Of a stretch of 64,000 nucleotides of DNA, positions 2,238 through 59,771 are shown in pieces (positions within the stretch are counted from its first letter, which is position 1; each line of letters begins with the position of its first letter). Source of the DNA: Candidatus Daviesbacteria bacterium (GTDB taxonomy: Bacteria > Patescibacteriota > Microgenomatia > Daviesbacterales > UBA10151). Made by a program: the position numbers and the translations under genes. The stretch is taken from assembly GCA_016176415.1 (NCBI GenBank), contig JACOXH010000003.1, positions 12,419-76,418 on the forward strand, given 5' to 3'. The notes below the pieces were generated by a model. That model saw nothing but the letters and a program-made list of their open reading frames with translations. It ran no database searches and was not told the DNA's origin.

Positions 2238-3121
2238 ATAATTTAATGCGGTACAAAACTTTATATTTTATTCTGTCTTTGCTAATTATTCTGCCGGGCC
2301 TTTATTATTTGGTAACTTCAGGAGTGAAGCTGGGAATAGATTTTACAGGTGGGGCATTGCTTGAATATCAGTTTGAAAAAAGCATAAATTCAGATGAGTT
2401 AAAAAAAGAGATATCAAATAGGGGTATTGAAGTAGGTCAGGTTACTTCTTCATCTGAGAATACTTATATTATCAGAACAAAACCTATGGAGCAGGAGAAG
2501 ATAGGTAAATTAAAGTCTGATCTTAGTGAAAAATTTGGCAAGATAGAGGAGAGAAGAATAGAATTTGTAGGGCCTGTGATCGGTTCAGAATTAAGACAAA
2601 AAGCAGTAATTGGTATTGTGCTGGCCTCAATAGTGATAGTTTTGTATATTGCTTACTCTTTCAGAAAAATACCCAGACCTCAATCATCATGGCGTTTTGG
2701 GGTAGCAGCTGTACTGGCTTTAGTTCATGATATTTTGGTAGTGGCAGGAGCTTTTGCAATTTTAGGGCATTTTGCAGGAGTAGAAGTTGATACTTTGTTT
2801 GTAACAGCGCTTTTAACAATAATTGGTTTTTCTGTTCATGACACAATTGTGGTGTTTGACAGAATCAGGGAGAATTTGACAAAACACATAGGCAGGAAAT
2901 TCGTGGATGTAGCAAATCTTTCTATAGTTCAAACTATTGGCAGATCTTTAAACACGTCCTTAACCGTAGTATTTGTACTTCTTGCCCTGCTTTTATTTGG
3001 AGGAGAAAGCTTAAGGTGGTTTGTGGTGGCTTTGCTTGTAGGTATCGTTTCGGGAACTTATTCTTCAATTTTTAACGCCACAGCAATGCTTGTCTGGTGG
3101 GAAGAGCGGTTGGGTCATTAA
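2234..3121 (+). CDS. secF: Protein-export membrane protein SecF
   Basis: 'GIDFTGGALLEYQF' and C-terminal 6-TM region with 'FDRIREN' typical of SecF. Start overlaps upstream stop. Confidence 0.85.
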   Translation: MNNLMRYKTLYFILSLLIILPGLYYLVTSGVKLGIDFTGGALLEYQFEKSINSDELKKEISNRGIEVGQVTSSSENTYIIRTKPMEQEKIGKLKSDLSEKFGKIEERRIEFVGPVIGSELRQKAVIGIVLASIVIVLYIAYSFRKIPRPQSSWRFGVAAVLALVHDILVVAGAFAILGHFAGVEVDTLFVTALLTIIGFSVHDTIVVFDRIRENLTKHIGRKFVDVANLSIVQTIGRSLNTSLTVVFVLLALLLFGGESLRWFVVALLVGIVSGTYSSIFNATAMLVWWEERLGH

Positions 3122-4539
3122 GCGAGCTCTTTTATTCTGTTTAATAAGTAATCTTTATTGTTTTTTTCAGCGTTTTCTAAAACTTCTTCAAAAAGTTTTT
3201 GTAAAATTTCACCAATTTTAGGACCGGATTTAATATTTAATACCTCCATTATATCATTACCGTTTACTTTTAAATCTGAAATAGAAAATGGTTTTTGTAA
3301 AACCTGTTTAATTCTTTCATTGAATTTTTCCATTCTCCAAGAGACCGCTCTTTGTGTGCCTCCCCCCAGTCTGTCACCTATTCTCACTGCCATCATATCC
3401 TCAATATTTTCCAGCCCCACGTTATTAATAAAACGCCTGATGGCAGAATCAGTTTGATTTTCATCTACTGTAAAAAGATGCCATCTGACTAATTTGTATA
3501 ATTTATCAGTTTGTTTTTTGGATAAATTAAATCTTTGGGCAATTTGTAAAACTAACCTTCCTCCGTAAACATCATGGTTGTAAAAGGTAACATTGCCATC
3601 GCTTTCAGTTTTGACAGTTTGCACTTTGCCGATATCGTGTAAAAGTGCAGCTAATCTGACTAGGGAATTTTTTGATGGAGTATGCTGTAAAGTCATCAGA
3701 GAGTGTTCTCCTATATCGTAAACTCTGTCATGCTTGGGTCCTTGCTGCACAATACCAAAACATCTTTCCAGCTCAGGTAAAATAATTTGCAATATTCCTG
3801 CCTCCCTTAATTTGTTGATACCCTCAAGAGGGTTCTCAGCTGATAAAATTTTAAATAACTCATTTCTTACCCTTTCTTTTGCAATTTCCTCAATAAGTCC
3901 TGCATTTTCTTTTATTGCTTCAAAAGTTTTAATTTCTATCTCAAACTTTAATTGAGTAGCAATCCTTATTGCTCTTATCAACCTTAAGGCATCTTCTTTA
4001 AACCGATCATTGGGATTTCCAACAGTGCGAATGATTTTATCATGTATGTCTTTTTCTCCATGATAAGGATCTATGAGAGTCAAGTCGCTAGAATCTAGAG
4101 TCAAAGAGTTTATTTTCCTAGACTCTTGACTCTTGACTCTTGACTCTATACCCAAAGCAATAGCATTAATAGTAAAATCCCGTCTGGCTAAATCCTCTTC
4201 AATTTTATCAGTCCAGCCAACCTGGGCAGGGTGACGGAAATCTTTATAGTCACCCTCCTTCCTCATGGTAGTGACTTCGAAAACTTCCACCTCGGGGGAG
4301 TCAAAGCCCACCCCCGAGGTGTTCTTCGTCGGTATTCCCACAGTGCCGAATTTATTGTCGTAAAAGCCTTCAGGGATAATTTTTAAAATTTCCTCTGGTT
4401 TGGCATCAGTAGTAAAGTCCCAGTCGTTAACTTCTTTACCCATTAAAATGTCTCTGACTGCCCCTCCGACAATGTAAATTTGAAAACCGGCTTTTTGAAA
4501 CTTATTTAAAATATCTTCTACTTCTTTAGGTAAGTGCAT
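3118..4539 (-). CDS. cca: CCA-adding tRNA nucleotidyltransferase / poly(A) polymerase family with HD domain
   Basis: N-terminal 'IYIVGGAVRDILMG...DWDFTT' is the pol-beta nucleotidyltransferase head. C-terminal 'LAALLHDIGK' is the HD domain. Contains in-frame repeat insertions (see repeats). Confidence 0.75.
   Translation of the reverse strand: MHLPKEVEDILNKFQKAGFQIYIVGGAVRDILMGKEVNDWDFTTDAKPEEILKIIPEGFYDNKFGTVGIPTKNTSGVGFDSPEVEVFEVTTMRKEGDYKDFRHPAQVGWTDKIEEDLARRDFTINAIALGIESRVKSQESRKINSLTLDSSDLTLIDPYHGEKDIHDKIIRTVGNPNDRFKEDALRLIRAIRIATQLKFEIEIKTFEAIKENAGLIEEIAKERVRNELFKILSAENPLEGINKLREAGILQIILPELERCFGIVQQGPKHDRVYDIGEHSLMTLQHTPSKNSLVRLAALLHDIGKVQTVKTESDGNVTFYNHDVYGGRLVLQIAQRFNLSKKQTDKLYKLVRWHLFTVDENQTDSAIRRFINNVGLENIEDMMAVRIGDRLGGGTQRAVSWRMEKFNERIKQVLQKPFSISDLKVNGNDIMEVLNIKSGPKIGEILQKLFEEVLENAEKNNKDYLLNRIKELA
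4078..4147. repeat. Low-complexity insertion inside cca: inverted 'gagtcaag/cttgactc' plus 4 tandem heptamers 'gactctt'
   Basis: Direct reading: 4121-4147 gactcttgactcttgactcttgactct. Translates in-frame as 'ESRVKSQESRK'. Confidence 0.6.
4284..4321. repeat. REP-like hairpin copy (CCACCTCGGGGG-AGTCAAAGCCCA-CCCCCGAGGTG) inserted in-frame in cca
   Basis: Perfect 11-bp inverted repeat with 12-nt loop. Shares core CCACCCCCGAGGTG with the IS200-like element ends at 59000/59716. Confidence 0.7.
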
Positions 4540-10148: not shown

Positions 10149-11492
10149 ATGGAGAGAACATTAATTTTAGACTGTAATGAGAAAATTGATCAAACAGTAC
10201 ATATTTGTGGTTTTGTGCAAGTCAGGCGCGATCACGGAAAAATTGTATTTTTAGACATAGCTGACAGATCTGCTGTTATTCAGGTGGTAATATCGTCAGA
10301 TGCAATCCACCTCGAAGGAGTCAAAGCCCACCTTCGAGGTGATATTAGGCCGCAGGATGTTGTCTGTATAACAGGAAAAGTTAATAAACGCCCCGAACAC
10401 TTAATAAATAAAAATATCCCTACAGGCGGTATTGAGATTTTTGCTGAGAGTATTGAAGTTTTGTCAAAAGCATCAGAATTACCTTTTGACATGGGCGGAA
10501 AGGATCTGGATCTGCAGCTTCCCACTTTGCTGGATTACCGTTCTTTAACTTTGCGTCACCCAAAAATAAAATCAATTTTTAAAGTGCAGTCTGCAATTTT
10601 AGAAGGTTTTAGAAAAGCAGTAAAAGAGATTGGGTGTACTGAAATTGTAGTGCCCACTATTGTGGCAGGTTCTACAGAAGGAGGGGCAGAAGTGTTTAAA
10701 GTAGATTATTTTGAACACAAAGCATATTTATCCCAAAGCCCGCAACTTTATAAACAAATGTTGATACCGGTATTGGAAAGAGTGTTTACCATTGCCAAAG
10801 CATACAGAGCAGAACCTTCAGTCACAACCAGACATTTAACAGAGGTAACTCAAATGGATGTGGAAATTGGATTTACCAACTTTGAGGAACTATTGGATAT
10901 TTTGGAAAATACTGCCACAAATATGTTGGAGTTTTGCCAAAAAGAATGCGAAGATATTTTATCTGAATTTGGAGTGGAAAAAATTAGTATTGGAAAAATT
11001 CCCAGACTTACTTTAAGAGAAGCACAAGAGTTAATTTTAAAAGAGTTTGGCCGTGACAACAGAAAAGAGAAAGATTTAACACCGCAAGATGAAATTGATC
11101 TTTGTAAGTGGGCCAAAGAAAAACACGACAGTGATTTTGTGACGGTGACTCATTTTCCAACTAATGCCAAGCCTTTTTATACTATGCCTGACCCCAAAAA
11201 TCCTGAATATTCTCTAAGTTATGATTTGCTTTTCAGGGGGGTTGAGGTAATGAGTGGTAGTCAAAGGATTAATGATTATGGGCAGCTGGTAGATTCTATT
11301 AAAGGAAGGGGCATGGATCCGGATAGTTTTGAGATGTATCTTCAGGCTTTTAAATACGGCATGCCTCCTGAAGGAGGATTTTCTTTCGGTTTGGAAAGAG
11401 TAACAATGCATGTATTAAATCTTGCTAATATCAGAGAAGCTTCACTTTTTCCCAGAGATATGGAAAGAGTAGATACTAGATTAAGTAAGTGA
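10149..11492 (+). CDS. aspS: Class IIb aspartyl/asparaginyl-tRNA synthetase (archaeal/type-2 AspRS-like)
   Basis: N-terminal OB anticodon-binding domain. Class II motifs 'FRAE', 'GGFSFGLERV', C-terminal 'FPRD'. Size ~447 aa fits type-2 AspRS/AsnRS. Confidence 0.75.
   Translation: MERTLILDCNEKIDQTVHICGFVQVRRDHGKIVFLDIADRSAVIQVVISSDAIHLEGVKAHLRGDIRPQDVVCITGKVNKRPEHLINKNIPTGGIEIFAESIEVLSKASELPFDMGGKDLDLQLPTLLDYRSLTLRHPKIKSIFKVQSAILEGFRKAVKEIGCTEIVVPTIVAGSTEGGAEVFKVDYFEHKAYLSQSPQLYKQMLIPVLERVFTIAKAYRAEPSVTTRHLTEVTQMDVEIGFTNFEELLDILENTATNMLEFCQKECEDILSEFGVEKISIGKIPRLTLREAQELILKEFGRDNRKEKDLTPQDEIDLCKWAKEKHDSDFVTVTHFPTNAKPFYTMPDPKNPEYSLSYDLLFRGVEVMSGSQRINDYGQLVDSIKGRGMDPDSFEMYLQAFKYGMPPEGGFSFGLERVTMHVLNLANIREASLFPRDMERVDTRLSK
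10307..10341. repeat. REP-like hairpin copy (CCACCTCGAAGG-AGTCAAAGCCCA-CCTTCGAGGTG) in-frame in aspS
   Basis: Same loop and outer stem as 4284-4321 copy. Inner stem GGGG/CCCC replaced by AAGG/CCTT (compensatory). Confidence 0.7.
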
Positions 11493-15216: not shown

Positions 15217-15287
15217 TGCGGGATCATCTAACGGTAGGATACATGCCTCTGGAGCATGGCATCTTGGTTCAAATCCAAGTCCCGCAA
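15217..15287 (+). tRNA. tRNA-Gln (anticodon CUG)
   Basis: Manual fold: acceptor TGCGGGA/TCCCGCA, D-loop with GG, anticodon stem CATGC/GCATG with loop CTCTGGA (U33, anticodon CTG), T-arm CTTGG-TTCAAAT-CCAAG, discriminator A. CCA not encoded. Confidence 0.75.
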
Positions 15288-51373: not shown

Positions 51374-51410
51374 TATCACACCTCGGAGGTGTGATAGAGG
51401 TGTGATAAAA
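51374..51410. repeat. REP-like palindrome TATCACACCTCGGAGGTGTGATA plus partial direct repeat (intergenic)
   Basis: Perfect 23-nt palindrome containing CACCTCGG/CCGAGGTG core. Confidence 0.6.
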
Positions 51411-51722: not shown

Positions 51723-54644
51723 ACTAAAAGAAGCAAAAGATGCTACGCTCCCTGAAACTATAAGCAGCCCTCCAAGAATTTCTTTATAAGAATAACCAGT
51801 ATTTTGGTTTATTGATAATTGTTTTTGTTGATCTAGAAATCCCTCTTTATTTATCTGATCAGAAATTTCATCAGGGTTTTTAAAAGTAATTCCCAAAATA
51901 TCAGATTGAGAAAGTATAGAATCAGGAGATTGGTTTGTTTTACTGCCAATGTTCACCCCGGAGGTGTTAACCTGGTTACTGCTTGCGCCCACCTCCGGGG
52001 TGGTGCTGATGGAAGATGGTGCCGGAGTAGGTGATAGAGCAATTTGAATAGTAAAGGTTTGAGGGATTTCCTCATTTCCTAATTTGTCTATTGCCTTAAT
52101 TTGTAATGTAGTAGTACCGGGAGTTGAGATGGTAAAAGGTTCTGAATAAGTTTGAACAGTTTGGCCGTTATCTAAACTGTATTCAATTTTTAATATTCCT
52201 GCTTCTGTATCGCTGGCAGTTAGAGTAATGGTAACGGGTCCTGTATAAATACCTGAAGAGTTTTTAGTACCGGAGATTTGTATAGAAGTAGAAGGAGGGG
52301 TTTGATCTGTAGCTGCAGAACCGGTTACTTCACTGGTAGAAATAATAGTGGTGGTAGTTGAGCCCTGATAAAGATTTAGAGAAGGAGAGGTATCTAAAGA
52401 TGGATCAAGGTCAAATTCTATTTTATCTGCAAAAGAAATACTCAGATCTTTATAAAGAGTAGTTTTGGAGATTTTATCTTCTCTGTAAGTTCTTTTTTTA
52501 AGATTGGTAGTTTTAGAGCTGTTTGAAGGGTTTTTCCGGGTAGCTTTAACTTTTACTTTGGAAGCTTTCTTTTTTACAAAAGCATGTTTGGTATTACCGG
52601 AAGTAGTACAAGTTACGTCAGGAATATTTTCTTCGATTTCGCCATTATCATTTAATCCACAGTGGCGGTTTTGATCGTCATATAAATCAAGTTCTCCGTC
52701 ATCCAAAGTTAATTGCTCGCCTTCCAAACTTATTTTTTCGCTCTTAACCTGAACAGGAATAGCTAAATTATCATCATTTAAGATTCCTCTTACAGCTGCC
52801 ATTGCAGGACCGCTGCTATTAACAAGATCACTGTGCTTTTGTTCTACATAGTAAATTTGAGAAGCTCCGGAAATATCTAAAGAATCATTTTTTAAAGAAG
52901 CGCTATAAAGGGGGACAGTGCCGTCACCGTTAATAAAAATTTCATCTCTTTTTGTAATGAGATTAATTGGCCATGTGATCCACCAAGTTTCGTGAATTTG
53001 TCCTAAGGTAGGTTGTGATGTGCCAACTATTTCATATGCAATAACACCATTTGCTTGGTTAAGGGTGACATCAAGACTGTGAAATTGTTCTGCGATCCCA
53101 AAAGTAGTCATGTTGTAATTAAGATTTGTTAAAAGTGTTTTTATCTGATTAAAATTTAGGGAACCTGTAACGTTGTTATTATCAATATCGCGATCATCTT
53201 TAAAAGGATATAATATTTCATTCCTTGAGTTATCATAAAAATCAAAGTATTTGTTTGACGGTAAAAGTTGAAAAGCGCTCGAAAAATTTTGGAAAAGATC
53301 TTTAACTTCTGATGATGGAATACCGAGATAAAAATCTCCCAATATTTGCCTACCTAGAGGCTTGCCATACATCAGAGCTTTTGTAGCATCTACTGCTCCC
53401 AAATGGGGAACACCTAGTTCAATTAATTTATTTACCTTTGTAGCCTTTGAAGAATCTGAAATATAATACCTGGCTACTAAACCGCCCATGGAGTGAACAA
53501 CTAAATTTACCTGTGATTGTCCGGAGGCAATCCTGGCTGATTCTATTAAAGCATCTAAGCTGTCTTTTGTGCTTCTGACATCTTTTCTCCAGTCGTATGG
53601 AAAAACAAAAAAGTTTGTGCCCTTGTTATATCCCATTTCAGCAAAAAAGGAATCAATTTGCGAATAACCATCAGAAACTAAAGCTCCTGTTAAAGATAAA
53701 TCTGCTTCTGAAGTTACCCCATCAGATTTTAATTTCAATACATCAAAATAATCATCATTACCCAAGGCAGCTGCCTCATTTGTGTTAACCCAAATTTTTT
53801 CATCAGCTGTATATGCATGAGAATATGTTCCCCCGTGTCCATTATCAGCAGACCACACAATATCTTGAGTAGCTTTCATTTCTGATCCACCAATTCCGGG
53901 GATAAAAATTACAGGAAGTCTGGGCGGAGATGGTGGAGGAGAGTTGTTGTTTAAAACAAAGTATAAATCATTTTTATAGTAACCAAAAATATTACAACCA
54001 AAACTTGCAGTTTGTGAGTTCCAAATATAAGAGGAGGCATTACACACTCCATTATCAAAAGCATATCTGACTCCTCCTCCGGTGAAATAATCATTAGAGG
54101 TGCCGCTATAATTTGCAGTAGCAAGCTTCATTCTTTTGCCTCCCCATTGAGCTGCATTTGCATTTGTTAAAAGAATTAAATATCTGTGACCGAAAATAAA
54201 TTCATAATTTCTGCAGGAAAAATCTATGGTAACGTCTTCATACCCTGCAGGAACACCTGTAGTGGTAAATGTTAGACCTGTCAGTGGATCTGAGGCATTT
54301 GAGACACAGGGAATAGTGTATGAATTATTGTTGTCTTTATCGTAAATTTTAGTATTTAAACCAGCGAAATCAAACTGATCTATATTTGAAGCAGAAGTTG
54401 AAACCCTGAAAGTAAAATTTTCCAGTGTTCCTGAAAGGTTGTTTCCGAGTTCTTGAATTGCCTGCCAGACATTTAAAGTGGAATCGTATCCTTGTGTTTG
54501 TTCTGCTACAGAAACTGCATAAGATGGATGGGTGAAAGTCACAAAAACTCCTCCCAAAAGGGCAAACCCGAAAATTAGGGCAATTGGCAGTTTTTGATTC
54601 ACTTTTACTAAAATGATTGTTGATCGTGAAAAAGGGAAGCGCAA
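51681..54644 (-). CDS. Large (987 aa) secreted alpha/beta-hydrolase (lipase/PGAP1-like GxSxG 'VHSMGG') with C-terminal Ig-like domain and hydrophobic anchor
   Basis: N-terminal signal/TM, 'VIFIPGIGGSE', 'LVVHSMGGLVARYY', Thr/Ser-rich linker, beta-rich domain, C-terminal hydrophobic + basic tail. Confidence 0.55.
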   Translation of the reverse strand: MRFPFSRSTIILVKVNQKLPIALIFGFALLGGVFVTFTHPSYAVSVAEQTQGYDSTLNVWQAIQELGNNLSGTLENFTFRVSTSASNIDQFDFAGLNTKIYDKDNNNSYTIPCVSNASDPLTGLTFTTTGVPAGYEDVTIDFSCRNYEFIFGHRYLILLTNANAAQWGGKRMKLATANYSGTSNDYFTGGGVRYAFDNGVCNASSYIWNSQTASFGCNIFGYYKNDLYFVLNNNSPPPSPPRLPVIFIPGIGGSEMKATQDIVWSADNGHGGTYSHAYTADEKIWVNTNEAAALGNDDYFDVLKLKSDGVTSEADLSLTGALVSDGYSQIDSFFAEMGYNKGTNFFVFPYDWRKDVRSTKDSLDALIESARIASGQSQVNLVVHSMGGLVARYYISDSSKATKVNKLIELGVPHLGAVDATKALMYGKPLGRQILGDFYLGIPSSEVKDLFQNFSSAFQLLPSNKYFDFYDNSRNEILYPFKDDRDIDNNNVTGSLNFNQIKTLLTNLNYNMTTFGIAEQFHSLDVTLNQANGVIAYEIVGTSQPTLGQIHETWWITWPINLITKRDEIFINGDGTVPLYSASLKNDSLDISGASQIYYVEQKHSDLVNSSGPAMAAVRGILNDDNLAIPVQVKSEKISLEGEQLTLDDGELDLYDDQNRHCGLNDNGEIEENIPDVTCTTSGNTKHAFVKKKASKVKVKATRKNPSNSSKTTNLKKRTYREDKISKTTLYKDLSISFADKIEFDLDPSLDTSPSLNLYQGSTTTTIISTSEVTGSAATDQTPPSTSIQISGTKNSSGIYTGPVTITLTASDTEAGILKIEYSLDNGQTVQTYSEPFTISTPGTTTLQIKAIDKLGNEEIPQTFTIQIALSPTPAPSSISTTPEVGASSNQVNTSGVNIGSKTNQSPDSILSQSDILGITFKNPDEISDQINKEGFLDQQKQLSINQNTGYSYKEILGGLLIVSGSVASFASFSLFSAFVKQIKYKM
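51954..52002. repeat. REP-like inverted repeat CACCCCGGAGGTG ...23 nt... CACCTCCGGGGTG inside the 987-aa hydrolase gene (in-frame)
   Basis: 13-bp arms are exact reverse complements. Confidence 0.6.
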
Positions 54645-54769
54645 GAGAGATTAAAGGTGATTTAAAGTAACAAACAAATACACAGGCCCACCTGGAAGGT
54701 GAGCTTTGGCTCCTTCCAGGTGAACGGGAAGTCTTGCAAAAGAGGTTTGGGAAGTGATATAAAAGGGCA

Positions 54770-55541: not shown

Positions 55542-55982
55542 ATGAAATGCCCCTTTTGCAACAGTACTTTAAGTAAGGTTATCGATAAAAGGTCAGTGGA
55601 AAAACGCGGCCAAATCAGAAGAAGGAGAGAGTGTTTAAAGTGTTTTAAACGCTACACTACTTATGAGATGTGCGCACAGCTGGAAATTTTAGTTATCAAA
55701 AAAGACGGCAGCAAACAACCATATATAAGAGAAAAACTGGAAGTTGGGTTGACGAAAGCTTTGGAAAAAAGGCCGGGGATTGACAAGGTTTGCATACTGC
55801 TTGATAGAATAGAAAGCCGGATCAGGACACGGGGACTAAGTGAGGTTGCCTCGCAAATGTTGGGTAAGTGGGTCTTGTCGGAACTTAAAAAGTTGGACCC
55901 GGTTGCCTATTTGCGTTTTGCCAGCGTCTACCGGACTTTTTCTGACCCGAAAGACTTTAAAAAAGAATTGGAGACATTATGA
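55542..55982 (+). CDS. nrdR: Transcriptional repressor NrdR
   Basis: Zn-ribbon 'MKCPFCNSTLSKVIDKR...RRRECLKC' plus ATP-cone. Confidence 0.85.
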   Translation: MKCPFCNSTLSKVIDKRSVEKRGQIRRRRECLKCFKRYTTYEMCAQLEILVIKKDGSKQPYIREKLEVGLTKALEKRPGIDKVCILLDRIESRIRTRGLSEVASQMLGKWVLSELKKLDPVAYLRFASVYRTFSDPKDFKKELETL

Positions 55983-58555
55983 AAAAAACAAAAGCCACAT
56001 TACAAGTTGTAACAGCGCCAAGAATCCAAAGAGGCAAGAAAACTAATGGTCAGGTCAAGCCCAATGGTTTGGATCATAACAGCAGGACTTTTGAAACAAG
56101 GTTTATTCCCCGCTACAAAACTATTCCTCAGATGCCAGAGGGTTTGCCTGAACCTACTTTTTCTGAATCCTCCAATAAGATTTTATCTGAAAGATATCTT
56201 TTAAAGGGTGGCAATTTAGAAGTGGTAGAAAGCGTGGCTGAAAGATTTTGGCACATTGCTTATGATATTGCCTCCGGTGACTTTGACTTTAAAGTTTCTC
56301 AAAGCCAGGTTTTTGATATGGCCAAAGATTTTTATACCATGATGGTCAAACAGGAATTTTTACCCAATTCTCCTACAATCATGAATGCCGGTAAGCAAAA
56401 CGGTTTGCAGTATTCTGCCTGTTTTGTGTTGCCTGTTGGGGATTCTTTGCCGGAAATTTTTGATACCGTAAAGTATGCAGCCTTAATTCATCAAACAGGA
56501 GGAGGCACAGGTTTTTCTTTTTCCCGTCTTCGTTCTGCAGGCTCAATTGTTAACACAACCGGCGGCGTGGCTTCCGGGCCAGTTTCATTTTTACGGGTTT
56601 TTAATGCAGCCACTGAATCAATAAAGCAGGGGGGTACCAGAAGGGGGGCTAATATGGGTATTTTAAGAATAGACCACCCTGATGTTTTGGAATTTATCCG
56701 CTGTAAAGCAGAACTGGACGATTTAAACAAGCCAGTATACGAGAGAATTGCCCCGCTTTTATCTTCTGATGAAGCCAGGGATTTTGTAAAAACTTTGCTT
56801 TTGGACAAGCAAATATCCAATTTTAATATTTCTGTGGCTATAACTAATAAATTTATGGAAGCTTTGGCAAAGGAAGAAGATTATGAACTGATCAGTCCTC
56901 ATGATGGCAGCGTGGTTGGTAAATTAAATTCAAAAGAGGTATTTGATGAAATAGTGGAGAGGGCATGGAAAACAGGCGATCCTGGTTTGATTTTTATTGA
57001 CAGGATTAACAACTCCCCTGCCAATCCTGTACCTGGTTTAGAGCATATTGAAGCCACAAATCCATGTGGCGAACAGCCACTTGCACCTTGGGATGCCTGT
57101 AATTTGGGTTCTATAAATTTAGGAAAATTTGTGCTGGCAGACGGGATGGATGTGGACTGGGAAAAGTTAAGACAAATAACCCGTCAGGCTGTGCGCTTTT
57201 TGGATAATGTGGTACAAGCAAATCCTTTTACTCTAAAACAAATTTATGATCAAGTGCATAAAAACAGAAGGATTGGCTTAGGAGTAATGGGGTTTGCTGA
57301 TATGCTTTTTAAGTTAAAAATCCCTTACAACTCTGATGCTGCTTTGGAACTGGCTGCCAGAATAATGAAGTTTATTAATGAAGAAGGACACAAAAAATCA
57401 GAAGAGTTGGCTGAAGAAAAAGGCGCTTTTCCTAACTGGATTCACTCTATTTATGCCAAAGGCAACCCAATCAGAAATTCCACTATCACCACCATTGCTC
57501 CCACAGGTACTATTTCCATTATCGGTGATTGTTCTTCAGGGATTGAGCCTGTATTTGCTTTAGCTTACATCCACAGAGCCAAAGCTAAGGGTGACCAGTA
57601 CAGGACTTTAACTATTGCCAATCAGACATTTACAGATATTGCCAAAAGGGAAAGTTTTTATTCAGACGACCTGGCAGCTAAAGTATTGGAGCATGGTTCA
57701 GTCAGCGGGGTTGACGGCGTTCCCCAGGAATGGCAAAAGGTGTTTGTGACAGCTCCTGAAATTGATCCTGTTTGGCACGTTAAGATGCAGGCGGCTTTTC
57801 AACAATTTACTGATAACGGGGTTTCCAAAACCATTAACTTACCAAACAGCGCTACCCGTGACGATGTCAGAGATTCTTATATGCTGGCATGGGAAACAGG
57901 CTGTAATGGCATCACTATTTACCGTGATGGTTCCAAAAGTACTCAAGTATTAAATGTTTCTTCATCTTTGGATAGTCAGGTTGCTCAAGATGATTCGCAA
58001 GCGCCGGTAGCAGAAAGGCCAATGATTTTAAGAGGCAGGACTTATAAAATTTCTACCCCTGTAGGTGAAGCTTTTATTACTGTTAACCGTGATGAGCAGG
58101 ATCAGCCTTTTGAGGTATTCGTAACAGTGGGTCGGGCAGGAATGCACACTATGGCAGATGCAGAAGCCATGGGCAGGTTAGTTTCACTTTCTTTAAGACT
58201 GGCCAGAGGTGCCAAAGAAACAGATCCCAAAGCTGTGGCTTTGAAGATTGTAGACCAGCTCAAAGGAATAGGGGGAGCTTCATATGTGGGATTTGGTAAA
58301 AACAGGGTGATGAGTCTGGCTGACGCTATTGCCAAGGTTTTGGCAGAAGATTTGTCTTTAGGGTCTCAAGGGGAGATAATTGAAACAATACCTTTGAATT
58401 TAACTATGAACGGAAACAGTAATGATCCAGAGCCTTCAAGCTATGGTTCTCACTCCAAAACCAATGCTGATCTTTGTCCTGAATGCGGCAGCGCTTCCTT
58501 TGTAATGGAAGAAGGATGTAAGAAATGTCATAGCTGTGGATACAGCATGTGCTGA
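55979..58555 (+). CDS. nrdJ: Class II (adenosylcobalamin-dependent) ribonucleotide reductase NrdJ with C-terminal Zn-ribbon
   Basis: Active-site '[11 protein letters not shown]', 10-stranded barrel region, C-terminal 'CPECGS...CKKCHSCG'. Confidence 0.85.
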
Positions 58556-58999: not shown

Positions 59000-59738
59000 A
59001 CTTCCACCCCCGAGGTGGAAGTTAGGTGGAAGTTAATCTTCGCCATCTAAGAGCTGGTGTTTAATTAATTCCAATTCCTGCGCATAGCTAATTTGGTCGT
59101 CAGTAAACTTTTTATAATCTGCAACAGATTTAAAAAAATTAAGTATTTCTTCCTTTGTACATACTCCTTTACCATTCAAATATTCATTGTAAGATGACCA
59201 TTCATAATCCTCTGGTTTCTTGGTCAGAAACGAAGAAACAGAATTTAAGTGGATATATCTTGATACATGGACTAATTGTTCGTCAGATTCTATTAAGACA
59301 GCTTTAAATTGTCCCTGCAATAGAGGGCCAACTCTATTAAATTTAGTATTATAAAATTTAGTATAGCTATTGGTAAGCTTGCTAATAAATTCGCTTATAC
59401 CACCTTCTTTCAGTTGTTTTATCAGGAAATGAAAATGGTTAGGCATTAAGCAGTAACAGACGATGTCAACTATTTTTTTATTAGGATCAGGCTCGAATGA
59501 TTTATATTGGATAAAGTTTGAAAATTTCGGTTTAGGCCCTTCTAAGCGATAATAATTAATTGCCTGTAAAAATCGTGTATATGTTCTTCTGTTTTCATAT
59601 ATTCTTCTTTTTTCCACTCCACGGTTGTAAATGTGATAAAACTGACCGTTAATTAAAGGAATAATTCTTGCTGGCATAGATTTAGAATAAATAAAAATTA
59701 CCGAGGTGTCAATACACTTTCACCCCCGAGGTGGAAGT
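59000..59738 (-). mobile_element. IS200/IS605-like element: Y1 HUH transposase flanked by same-orientation subterminal hairpins ACTT(C/T)CACC-CCCGA-GGTGGAAGT
   Basis: Hairpins at 59000-59022 and 59716-59738, gene between. About 740 bp is typical IS200 size. Confidence 0.55.
59033..59677 (-). CDS. tnpA: IS200-like / REP-associated tyrosine (Y1, HUH) transposase
   Basis: HUH motif 'CLMPNHFHFLI' and catalytic Tyr region 'VSRYIHLNSV'. 214 aa (longer than canonical IS200 TnpA, like RAYTs). Confidence 0.7.
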   Translation of the reverse strand: MPARIIPLINGQFYHIYNRGVEKRRIYENRRTYTRFLQAINYYRLEGPKPKFSNFIQYKSFEPDPNKKIVDIVCYCLMPNHFHFLIKQLKEGGISEFISKLTNSYTKFYNTKFNRVGPLLQGQFKAVLIESDEQLVHVSRYIHLNSVSSFLTKKPEDYEWSSYNEYLNGKGVCTKEEILNFFKSVADYKKFTDDQISYAQELELIKHQLLDGED

Positions 59739-59771
59739 ACAAATTCATAGATTCTCTGGTAAAATCAGCTC

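Follow-up and report, generated by a model that had tools for sequence, protein, structure and literature searches.

Palindromic element in the aspS gene

The stretch of DNA analyzed here (the window) covers 64,000 nucleotides of contig JACOXH010000003.1 from a Candidatus Daviesbacteria bacterium. The aspS gene at 10149-11492 on the plus strand encodes a 447-aa aspartyl-tRNA synthetase (AspRS) of the archaeal, non-discriminating type, with the Pfam domains tRNA-synt_2 and tRNA_anti-codon. This protein is 100% identical to one Candidatus Daviesbacteria protein. The tRNA_anti-codon domain, an OB-fold, occupies residues 17-105 and the class II catalytic core lies behind it. Inside the gene, at 10308-10341 (+), is a 34-nt perfect palindrome, CACCTCGAAGG-AGTCAAAGCCCA-CCTTCGAGGTG, which has an 11-bp stem with the box CGAA/TTCG and a 12-nt loop (AGTCAAAGCCCA). 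It is in frame with the gene and encodes residues 54-64, HLEGVKAHLRG. This palindrome, the dispersed sequences related to it, and a transposase gene located 49 kb away in the same window are described below.

An earlier note on this DNA, made from the sequence alone, had reported a palindromic element here, and the element proved to be real; position 10307, with which the note began, is one flanking C. The note had placed it in the N-terminal anticodon-binding domain with the reading given above, in agreement with the Pfam boundaries. It had also pointed to a copy in the cca gene. This gene, at 3118-4539 on the minus strand, encodes a 473-aa tRNA nucleotidyltransferase (Pfam PolyA_pol, PolyA_pol_RNAbd, and HD), and the copy at 4288-4321 (+), CACCTCGGGGG-AGTCAAAGCCCA-CCCCCGAGGTG with the box CGGG/CCCG, is antisense to it and is read as NTSGVGFDSPEVE. 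The cca genes of two other loci (L016 and L094) contain orthologous copies. As the note had stated, the aspS and cca copies share the loop and the outer stem, while the inner stem differs on both arms, GAAGG/CCTTC in aspS versus GGGGG/CCCCC in cca. Two inner pairs are A-T in the former and G-C in the latter, which corresponds to two fully compensated base pairs. As single-stranded DNA, the aspS hairpin has a folding energy of -12 kcal/mol (z = -5.0 against shuffled sequences).

Family of dispersed palindromes and covariation of the stem

Genome contigs were scanned with a degenerate pattern with 20 specified bases, for which about one chance match is expected in 596 Gb. At least 112 loci were revealed. 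Among the matches listed, nearly all hosts are Daviesbacteria or other Microgenomates (Curtiss-, Gottesman-, Shapiro-, and Levybacteria, and CPR2), and several metagenome-assembled genomes (MAGs) contain at least 5-6 copies of this loop type. Identical 34-mers occupy many unrelated sites, both within and between genomes. The 34-mer consists of two inverted 13-nt motifs, CACCY-NNN-RGGTG, separated by an 8-nt spacer, and folds into the 11-bp hairpin. The four stem positions left unconstrained on each arm are complementary in almost all copies, with about 10 box variants.

The loci were searched again by the loop alone, with the stems unconstrained, which yielded 135 copies (53 distinct). Watson-Crick pairs account for 1441 of the 1485 stem positions (97%), and the remainder are 12 G·T, 10 A·C, and 22 other combinations. 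In 51 distinct sequences, 95.7% of cells pair, compared with 83.8 ± 0.8% after shuffling, and 65 cells are changed on both sides, compared with 16.8 ± 3.1; neither value was reached in 500 shuffles. The double changes are distributed over 6 of the 11 stem pairs, and controls in which the arms were slid pair at only 45-56%. Mismatches are thus far rarer than compensated pairs across the genomic copies, contrary to what would have undermined the proposal of the earlier note.

Part of the apparent compensation reflects different monomer variants, each present as an inverted pair, because the box is the 3-nt loop of a 13-nt hairpin that occurs once per arm in inverted orientation. Template switching, too, can make a palindrome perfect again. 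Stem perfection alone is no proof of a selected function in aspS. It is nevertheless presumed that selection on propagation, rather than template-switch repair alone, keeps the hairpin intact.

The favored interpretation, considered probable (roughly 0.6), assigns the aspS hairpin to a dispersed, REPIN-like family of miniature palindromes in Microgenomates of the candidate phyla radiation (CPR) and regards it as tolerated in a surface loop of AspRS. Two other origins were rejected. A phage vector was dismissed on the grounds that the 34-mer had 0 matches in viral contigs, and an assembly or adaptor artefact on the grounds that over 100 MAGs, obtained in many different studies, contain the element in frame.

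Some contigs that contain the element (L002, L006, L011, L014, and other contigs with CAZ... and CAY... accessions) are third-party annotation (TPA) records titled "uncultured Gammaproteobacteria", yet they have Daviesbacteria-like genes, such as one for an AspRS ~81% identical to that of the window. The taxonomic label is probably wrong.

Position in genes and reading frames

Of 118 copies, 104 (88%) lie within open reading frames (ORFs) of at least 120 codons that are stop-free through the element. Judged in this way, 88.3% of the positions across these loci count as genic. The genic share thus equals the coding density, and genes are not avoided. The element is open in five of its six frames; the sixth contains TGA and is never used. 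Frame S2 (TSxESKPTxEV) is found in 33 copies, S0 (HLxGVKAHLxG) in 31, A2 (TSxVGFDSxEV) in 24, S1 (PxRSQSPPxR) in 14, and A1 in 2. Since the same DNA is translated in five frames, an explanation as a conserved protein motif was rejected. The orientation relative to GC skew (75 to 43) is confounded with gene orientation and was treated as uninformative.

The host proteins recognized by Pfam include TrpRS, TsaD, YchF, an Mg-chelatase-like ATPase, DnaX, topoisomerase I (TopA), RecG, and an S1-domain protein, in addition to AspRS and the CCA-adding enzyme in the window. Two or three family members are present at different sites of single proteins encoded by ORFs of L082, L099, L105, and L032. The membrane protein of L082 includes HLEGARAHLRG, PRGSQSPPPR, and HLEGVRAHLPG, and TopA of L099 includes HLRGETKVTASVHLGG and TSEESKPTSEV.

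These positions bear on the possibility that the element is a structured RNA in mRNAs, such as a ribosome pause, stability, or processing site, whose stem is selected for RNA folding. The predicted RNA folds are stable (-19.5 kcal/mol for aspS and -28.4 kcal/mol for cca, z about -4), and the stem covaries. Pairs of the G·U type, however, are not more frequent than A·C among the 1485 pairs. In addition, 26 of the 104 genic copies run antisense to the gene in which they lie, either loop orientation is seen at the same site, and the host genes are unrelated, with arbitrary positions of the element in them. The element had no match in Rfam; the sole match at gathering score in the window is the tRNA gene at 15217-15287. 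An RNA function is therefore very improbable. The earlier note had concluded from the paired changes that a DNA or RNA secondary structure is maintained. The first half of this statement holds, as the stem complementarity is of the DNA type and not specific to RNA. RNA structure is not favored, because G·T is no more common than A·C and copies are found in both orientations relative to the host gene.

Insertion in the OB-fold loop of AspRS

The AspRS of the window was aligned with its 120 closest homologues (identity of 73% or more). In most of them, the site is occupied by a short loop, VVxxGxKxxDLRPQD, and the protein of the window is ~10-11 residues longer. Other homologues show the same element in the same frame, the element in another frame (TSKESKPTFEV), truncated remnants (KAHLRG), or relatives of the element that have other loops. 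This one loop of AspRS is thus the site of at least five independent family members, which differ in frame and loop. In the AlphaFold model, whose overall quality is only moderate, the segment lies between two OB-fold strands, and the predicted local distance difference test (pLDDT) score is below 50 for residues 54-62. Such low confidence is as would be expected for a tolerated surface loop, and the insert is probably neutral for the enzyme. At other sites, compared with orthologues that have no element, the net gain is 8-12 aa, with +11 aa (33 nt) in the cleanest case.

A more distant protein has a similar arrangement. An AspRS-like ORF of 508 aa in L034 (Gottesmanbacteria) shows 33-38% local identity to the 447-aa enzyme of the window and includes the element (TSKESKPTFEV), which was aligned to the equivalent OB-fold loop.

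Y1 transposase gene and its flanking hairpins

The gene at 59033-59677 on the minus strand encodes a 214-aa Y1/HUH tyrosine transposase (Pfam Y1_Tnp, E = 3e-7) that is similar to REP-associated tyrosine transposases (RAYTs). The HUH motif (H81-F82-H83) and Y141 are invariant in 50 homologues. The search of the Protein Data Bank (PDB) by sequence gave no match with this protein. Its predicted structure has a pLDDT of 90, and the best fold match in the PDB is 4ER8, in which the RAYT of E. coli is bound to a REP hairpin (E = 1.4e-6; template modelling score 0.64, normalized on the target), followed from rank 2 onward by the TnpA proteins of IS608 and ISDra2.

The gene is bracketed on both sides by ACTT(C/T)CACC-CCCGA-GGTGGAAGT. 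The downstream hairpin at 59000-59022, ACTTCCACC-CCCGA-GGTGGAAGT, is just 3' of the gene, and the upstream hairpin at 59716-59738, ACTTTCACC-CCCGA-GGTGGAAGT, is 39-61 nt before the start codon. The core 13-mer of the downstream hairpin, CACCCCCGAGGTG, and the 3' arm of the cca copy are identical in sequence. In 75 homologous transposase loci from metagenomes (45-69% identity), CACC[CT]NNN[AG]GGTG is found within 130 nt of the gene in 51 and at stereotyped offsets. The density of the motif near transposases is 94 in 18.9 kb (5.0 per kb), versus 8 in 250 kb (0.03 per kb) elsewhere, which corresponds to a 155-fold enrichment. The flanking hairpin at the homologues is a small stem-loop, such as TTCCACCT-CGG-AGGTGGAA, and its stem type tracks the transposase clade. 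The loop triplets of these hairpins (CGG, CCG, CGA, TCG, and GGA) are box variants of the dispersed 34-mers. This transposase is presumed to mobilize the 34-mers.

The transposase gene is syntenic in the window and three other Daviesbacteria (L193-L195), where it is accompanied by genes for a CobA/BtuR-like protein, ribonucleotide reductase, NrdR, a peptidyl-prolyl isomerase (PPIase), and Lon. One copy of it is present in the window and in the loci scanned. This conservation suggests that the transposase behaves as a domesticated, vertically inherited RAYT and not as a hopping insertion sequence (IS). In L193-L195, the flanks of the gene are 40-46-nt direct repeats that contain the hairpin.

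The direct repeat (59700-59750 in the window, and upstream of the gene in L193-L195) includes TTGACA and, ~17 nt further on, a TATTCT-like box. By its sequence, the upstream repeat may supply the promoter of the transposase, and the downstream copy would duplicate the TTGACA and TATTCT-like boxes. The ribonucleotide reductase next to the transposase contains a LAGLIDADG intein in L193 (5110-8645, 1245 aa), and the intein is absent in the window (55979-58555, 858 aa), L194, and L195.

Proposed mechanism of propagation

The transposase would recognize the hairpin in single-stranded DNA and copy or move the hairpin doublet. In genomes with ~88% coding sequence, most landings would be in genes. 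The survivors would be those with a net length that is a multiple of three and without a stop codon, in tolerant surface loops; the AspRS copy would be one of these, adding ~10-11 residues to a variable OB-fold loop. Complementarity of the stem would be kept since the hairpin is the unit that is recognized or copied. Both arms would derive from the same monomer variant, and palindromes could also correct themselves by template switching. Once fixed, copies would persist across species, flip their loop, change their box variant, decay, and pass between lineages by short recombination tracts.

A wider proposal is put forward tentatively, at somewhat less than even odds. The family would be a replicator of the RAYT-REPIN type whose niche is inside protein genes, with a domesticated Y1 transposase that propagates the doublets and keeps them intact. 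Copies would persist for long periods in essential genes, such as those for aminoacyl-tRNA synthetases, TopA, DnaX, and TsaD, and would remodel surface loops. With flips that swap ESKP and VGFD, they would be a steady source of variation of protein surfaces in reduced genomes.

Dynamics of copies at shared sites

Copies at the same site across species are common, with flanks ~75% identical. The loop is inverted with the stem unchanged in 19 of 61 same-site pairs, and within the reading frame such a flip swaps four encoded residues, ESKP versus VGFD. Some same-site pairs, such as L027/L108 and L056/L099, show fully compensated changes of the box. At other orthologous sites, the arms are the same but enclose longer or quite different loops, or the element is missing altogether. 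The higher conservation of the element (95%) than of the flanks (75%) at shared sites is inflated by ascertainment, since the search pattern had fixed 20 of the 34 nt, and it was given no weight as a sign of selection.

Another possibility is that the hairpin serves the host as a DNA signal, for instance for protein binding, cruciform formation, nucleoid structuring, or DNA uptake, and is selected at each locus independently of the transposase. The loop is very conserved across candidate phyla, copies at shared sites are intact with flanks down to ~75% identity (subject to the ascertainment just described), and E. coli REPs are known targets of proteins (PMC3733652). A fixed-sequence signal, however, does not need a covarying stem. 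The location of the copies follows the coding density with no positional logic, many orthologues have no element or a decayed copy, and the motif is concentrated at transposase genes. Such a signal is considered quite unlikely.

Alternatively, the copies may date from an old burst and be immobile fossils. The palindromes would then be kept by purely mutational processes (template-switch correction and inversion of the loop) and spread only by homologous recombination, and the link with the transposase would be historical or coincidental. This possibility is unlikely, but several observations agree with it. In both near-identical pairs of filled and empty AspRS genes, the difference is a recombination-like patch; AspRS alleles with the copy in the same frame have common flanking residues, as if from a single origin; and loop inversion at shared sites and decayed, truncated copies (e.g., P0012 and P0006) are seen. 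A fossil state is harder to reconcile with the identical 34-mers at many unrelated sites, with the repeated insertions in a single AspRS loop, and with the conserved active site of the transposase. The 155-fold enrichment in its flanks and the clade-specific hairpins argue for a live relationship between protein and DNA.

In the L197 and L198 AspRS genes, which come from the same groundwater site, the first ~130 nt are 100% identical and the sequences are again near-identical past a diverged block. This block of ~130-170 nt includes an element with 13-bp arms. The mosaic points to the recombination of a short tract between strains, or to a chimeric assembly.

Observations that weigh against a mobile, REPIN-like family

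Several results count against the interpretation of the element as a mobile, REPIN-like family. No transposition event was caught. The closest filled and empty AspRS pairs, L015/L196 and L197/L198 (flanks 94-100% identical), show a replaced, diverged patch instead of a clean insertion, most likely because an allele bearing the element was imported on a short recombination tract. The net insert length is variable across the 8 to 12 aa given above, and no convincing target-site duplication was found in the comparison of flanks. Conservation is higher in the 12-nt loop than in the stem box, the reverse of what is seen in the spacers of Pseudomonas REPINs. The only NCBIfam match of the transposase, REP_Tyr_transpos (NF047646), has 50.9 bits, below the cut-off of 80 for this RAYT model. 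No 34-mers of this loop type were found in 317 kb around 80 transposase homologues, and the dispersed box variants are often unlike the hairpin that flanks the transposase of the same genome. This mismatch suggests further transposase paralogues or a loose specificity. Finally, two features of REP elements are not shared by the family. REPs are by definition mostly extragenic, while ~88% of the present copies lie in ORFs and are read through, and neither GTAG nor CGTC, the conserved tetranucleotides that tag one end of REPs (PMC3733652), is seen; the consensus of the 5' flank is T (63%)-C/T (84%), and that of the 3' flank is T/G/A.

The candidate duplication TC...TC, seen in 18 copies, was not accepted, with 22 observed versus 15.3 ± 3.1 expected for k = 2. 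The same numbers bear on a classical miniature inverted-repeat transposable element (MITE), with 13-bp terminal inverted repeats, a DDE transposase, and a target-site duplication. The inverted-repeat architecture and variable interior are reminiscent of MITEs. Known MITEs are 70-300 bp long with 15-30 bp terminal inverted repeats and a duplication, whereas the present elements are 34-49 nt, far below this range, with a weak duplication and variable length. Recognition of double-stranded ends requires no covariation of the arms, and the only associated enzyme found is a Y1/HUH protein. A MITE origin is thus hardly tenable.

Comparison with known palindromic elements

REPINs are inverted doublets that are found in proximity to RAYT genes and show frequent compensatory changes (Bertels & Rainey 2011, PMC3116915). 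The family described here resembles the REP/REPIN-RAYT systems of Pseudomonas and Enterobacteria in being composed of short, GC-rich palindromes, mainly as inverted doublets that form a hairpin, and in the frequent compensatory changes of this hairpin. REPs are short, imperfect palindromes of ~20-40 nt that can form a hairpin, and the size of the present element is in keeping with this (34 nt, an 11-bp stem, and a monomer hairpin of 13-19 nt). As in RAYT systems, the motif flanks a single-locus, vertically inherited Y1/HUH transposase, the hairpin type co-varies with the transposase clade, and the fold of the enzyme is closest to 4ER8. The differences are also clear. The monomer is 13 nt and the doublet 34 nt, in contrast to ~25 nt and 70-110 nt; the spacer is more conserved than the box; the transposase scores under the NCBIfam RAYT cut-off; and the hosts belong to the CPR. 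Intragenic REPs have been reported as a minority, including some in tRNA synthetase genes (Di Nocera et al. 2013, PMC3733652).

The Rickettsia palindromic elements (RPEs) are the classic example of in-frame palindromes in functional protein genes (PMC3733652). Like RPEs, the present elements are selfish palindromes that reside in frame within genes that are functional and often essential, in a reduced genome, and add a tolerated peptide. The family is set apart by size and host: RPEs are ~100-150 bp, restricted to Rickettsia, and without a known transposase, while the elements here are 34 nt, found in CPR, and linked to a Y1 protein.

The IS200/IS605 group, such as IS608 and ISDra2, also has a Y1/HUH gene with subterminal hairpins, often in direct orientation, and the known enzymes recognize single-stranded hairpins. 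The transposase of the window differs from them in occupying one conserved locus in four species and in being longer (214 aa) and closest to RAYT. The dispersed units, moreover, are bare hairpin doublets without a gene.

Small inversions of hairpin loops at inverted repeats are known from plastid genomes. The finding of either loop orientation at the same site with an unchanged stem is comparable to them, but here the flip is inside a reading frame and alters four residues.

Relative to REPINs and RPEs, the new features of the family are its predominantly genic location, extremely small size, lack of a tag, conserved spacer, and presence in CPR. No prior description in CPR was found in the literature searched, the coverage of which is incomplete and no proof of novelty. 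REP/REPIN-RAYT systems have been regarded as extragenic passengers of large proteobacterial genomes. The present analogue is in ultra-small CPR genomes with nearly no intergenic space, and its copies lie inside essential genes and are translated. If the interpretation is correct, the host range and the permitted niche of such replicators are wider than thought. It would also account for many unexplained short insertions in CPR proteins that affect alignment, annotation, and structure prediction. Such a family would be a natural system for the coexistence of selfish hairpin DNA and protein function, comparable to RPEs and with a candidate enzyme in hand.

Other copies and related hairpins in the window

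A third 34-mer, not listed in the earlier note, is present at 54689-54722 on the minus strand, with the box GGAA/TTCC and the loop variant AGCCAAAGCTCA. It shows one further compensated pair (C-G to G-C), and its loop variant brings 3 extra pairs in the fold. It is probably located between the genes for a 987-aa hydrolase and the PPIase. The three 34-mers in the window compare with zero expected, as the shared pattern was unmatched in 100 shuffles. The 13-mer motif CACC-N5-GGTG occurs 8 times in the window versus 0.31 expected. The window has 4 doublets, 1 solo copy, and 2 transposase flanks. One related doublet, at 51954-52002, has 13-bp arms (CACCCCGGAGGTG and CACCTCCGGGGTG) with a 23-nt spacer and is in frame in the 987-aa LCAT-like gene. 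The solo, monomer-type hairpin at 51374-51407, TATCACACCT-CGG-AGGTGTGATA with a partial tandem copy, is intergenic, and its stem type is that seen in the flanks of transposase clade 9.

Inside the minus-strand cca gene, at 4076-4148, lies another palindromic stretch, unrelated to the element and containing heptamer repeats. Its sequence is GAGAGTCAAG...CTAGAGTCAA...(CTTGACT)x3-4, with the translation ESRVKSQESRKINSLTLDSSDLTL. A similar stretch, GGGTCAAG/TTGACTCTAG, is present in the TsaD gene of L073, and the two may represent another family of in-frame repeats.

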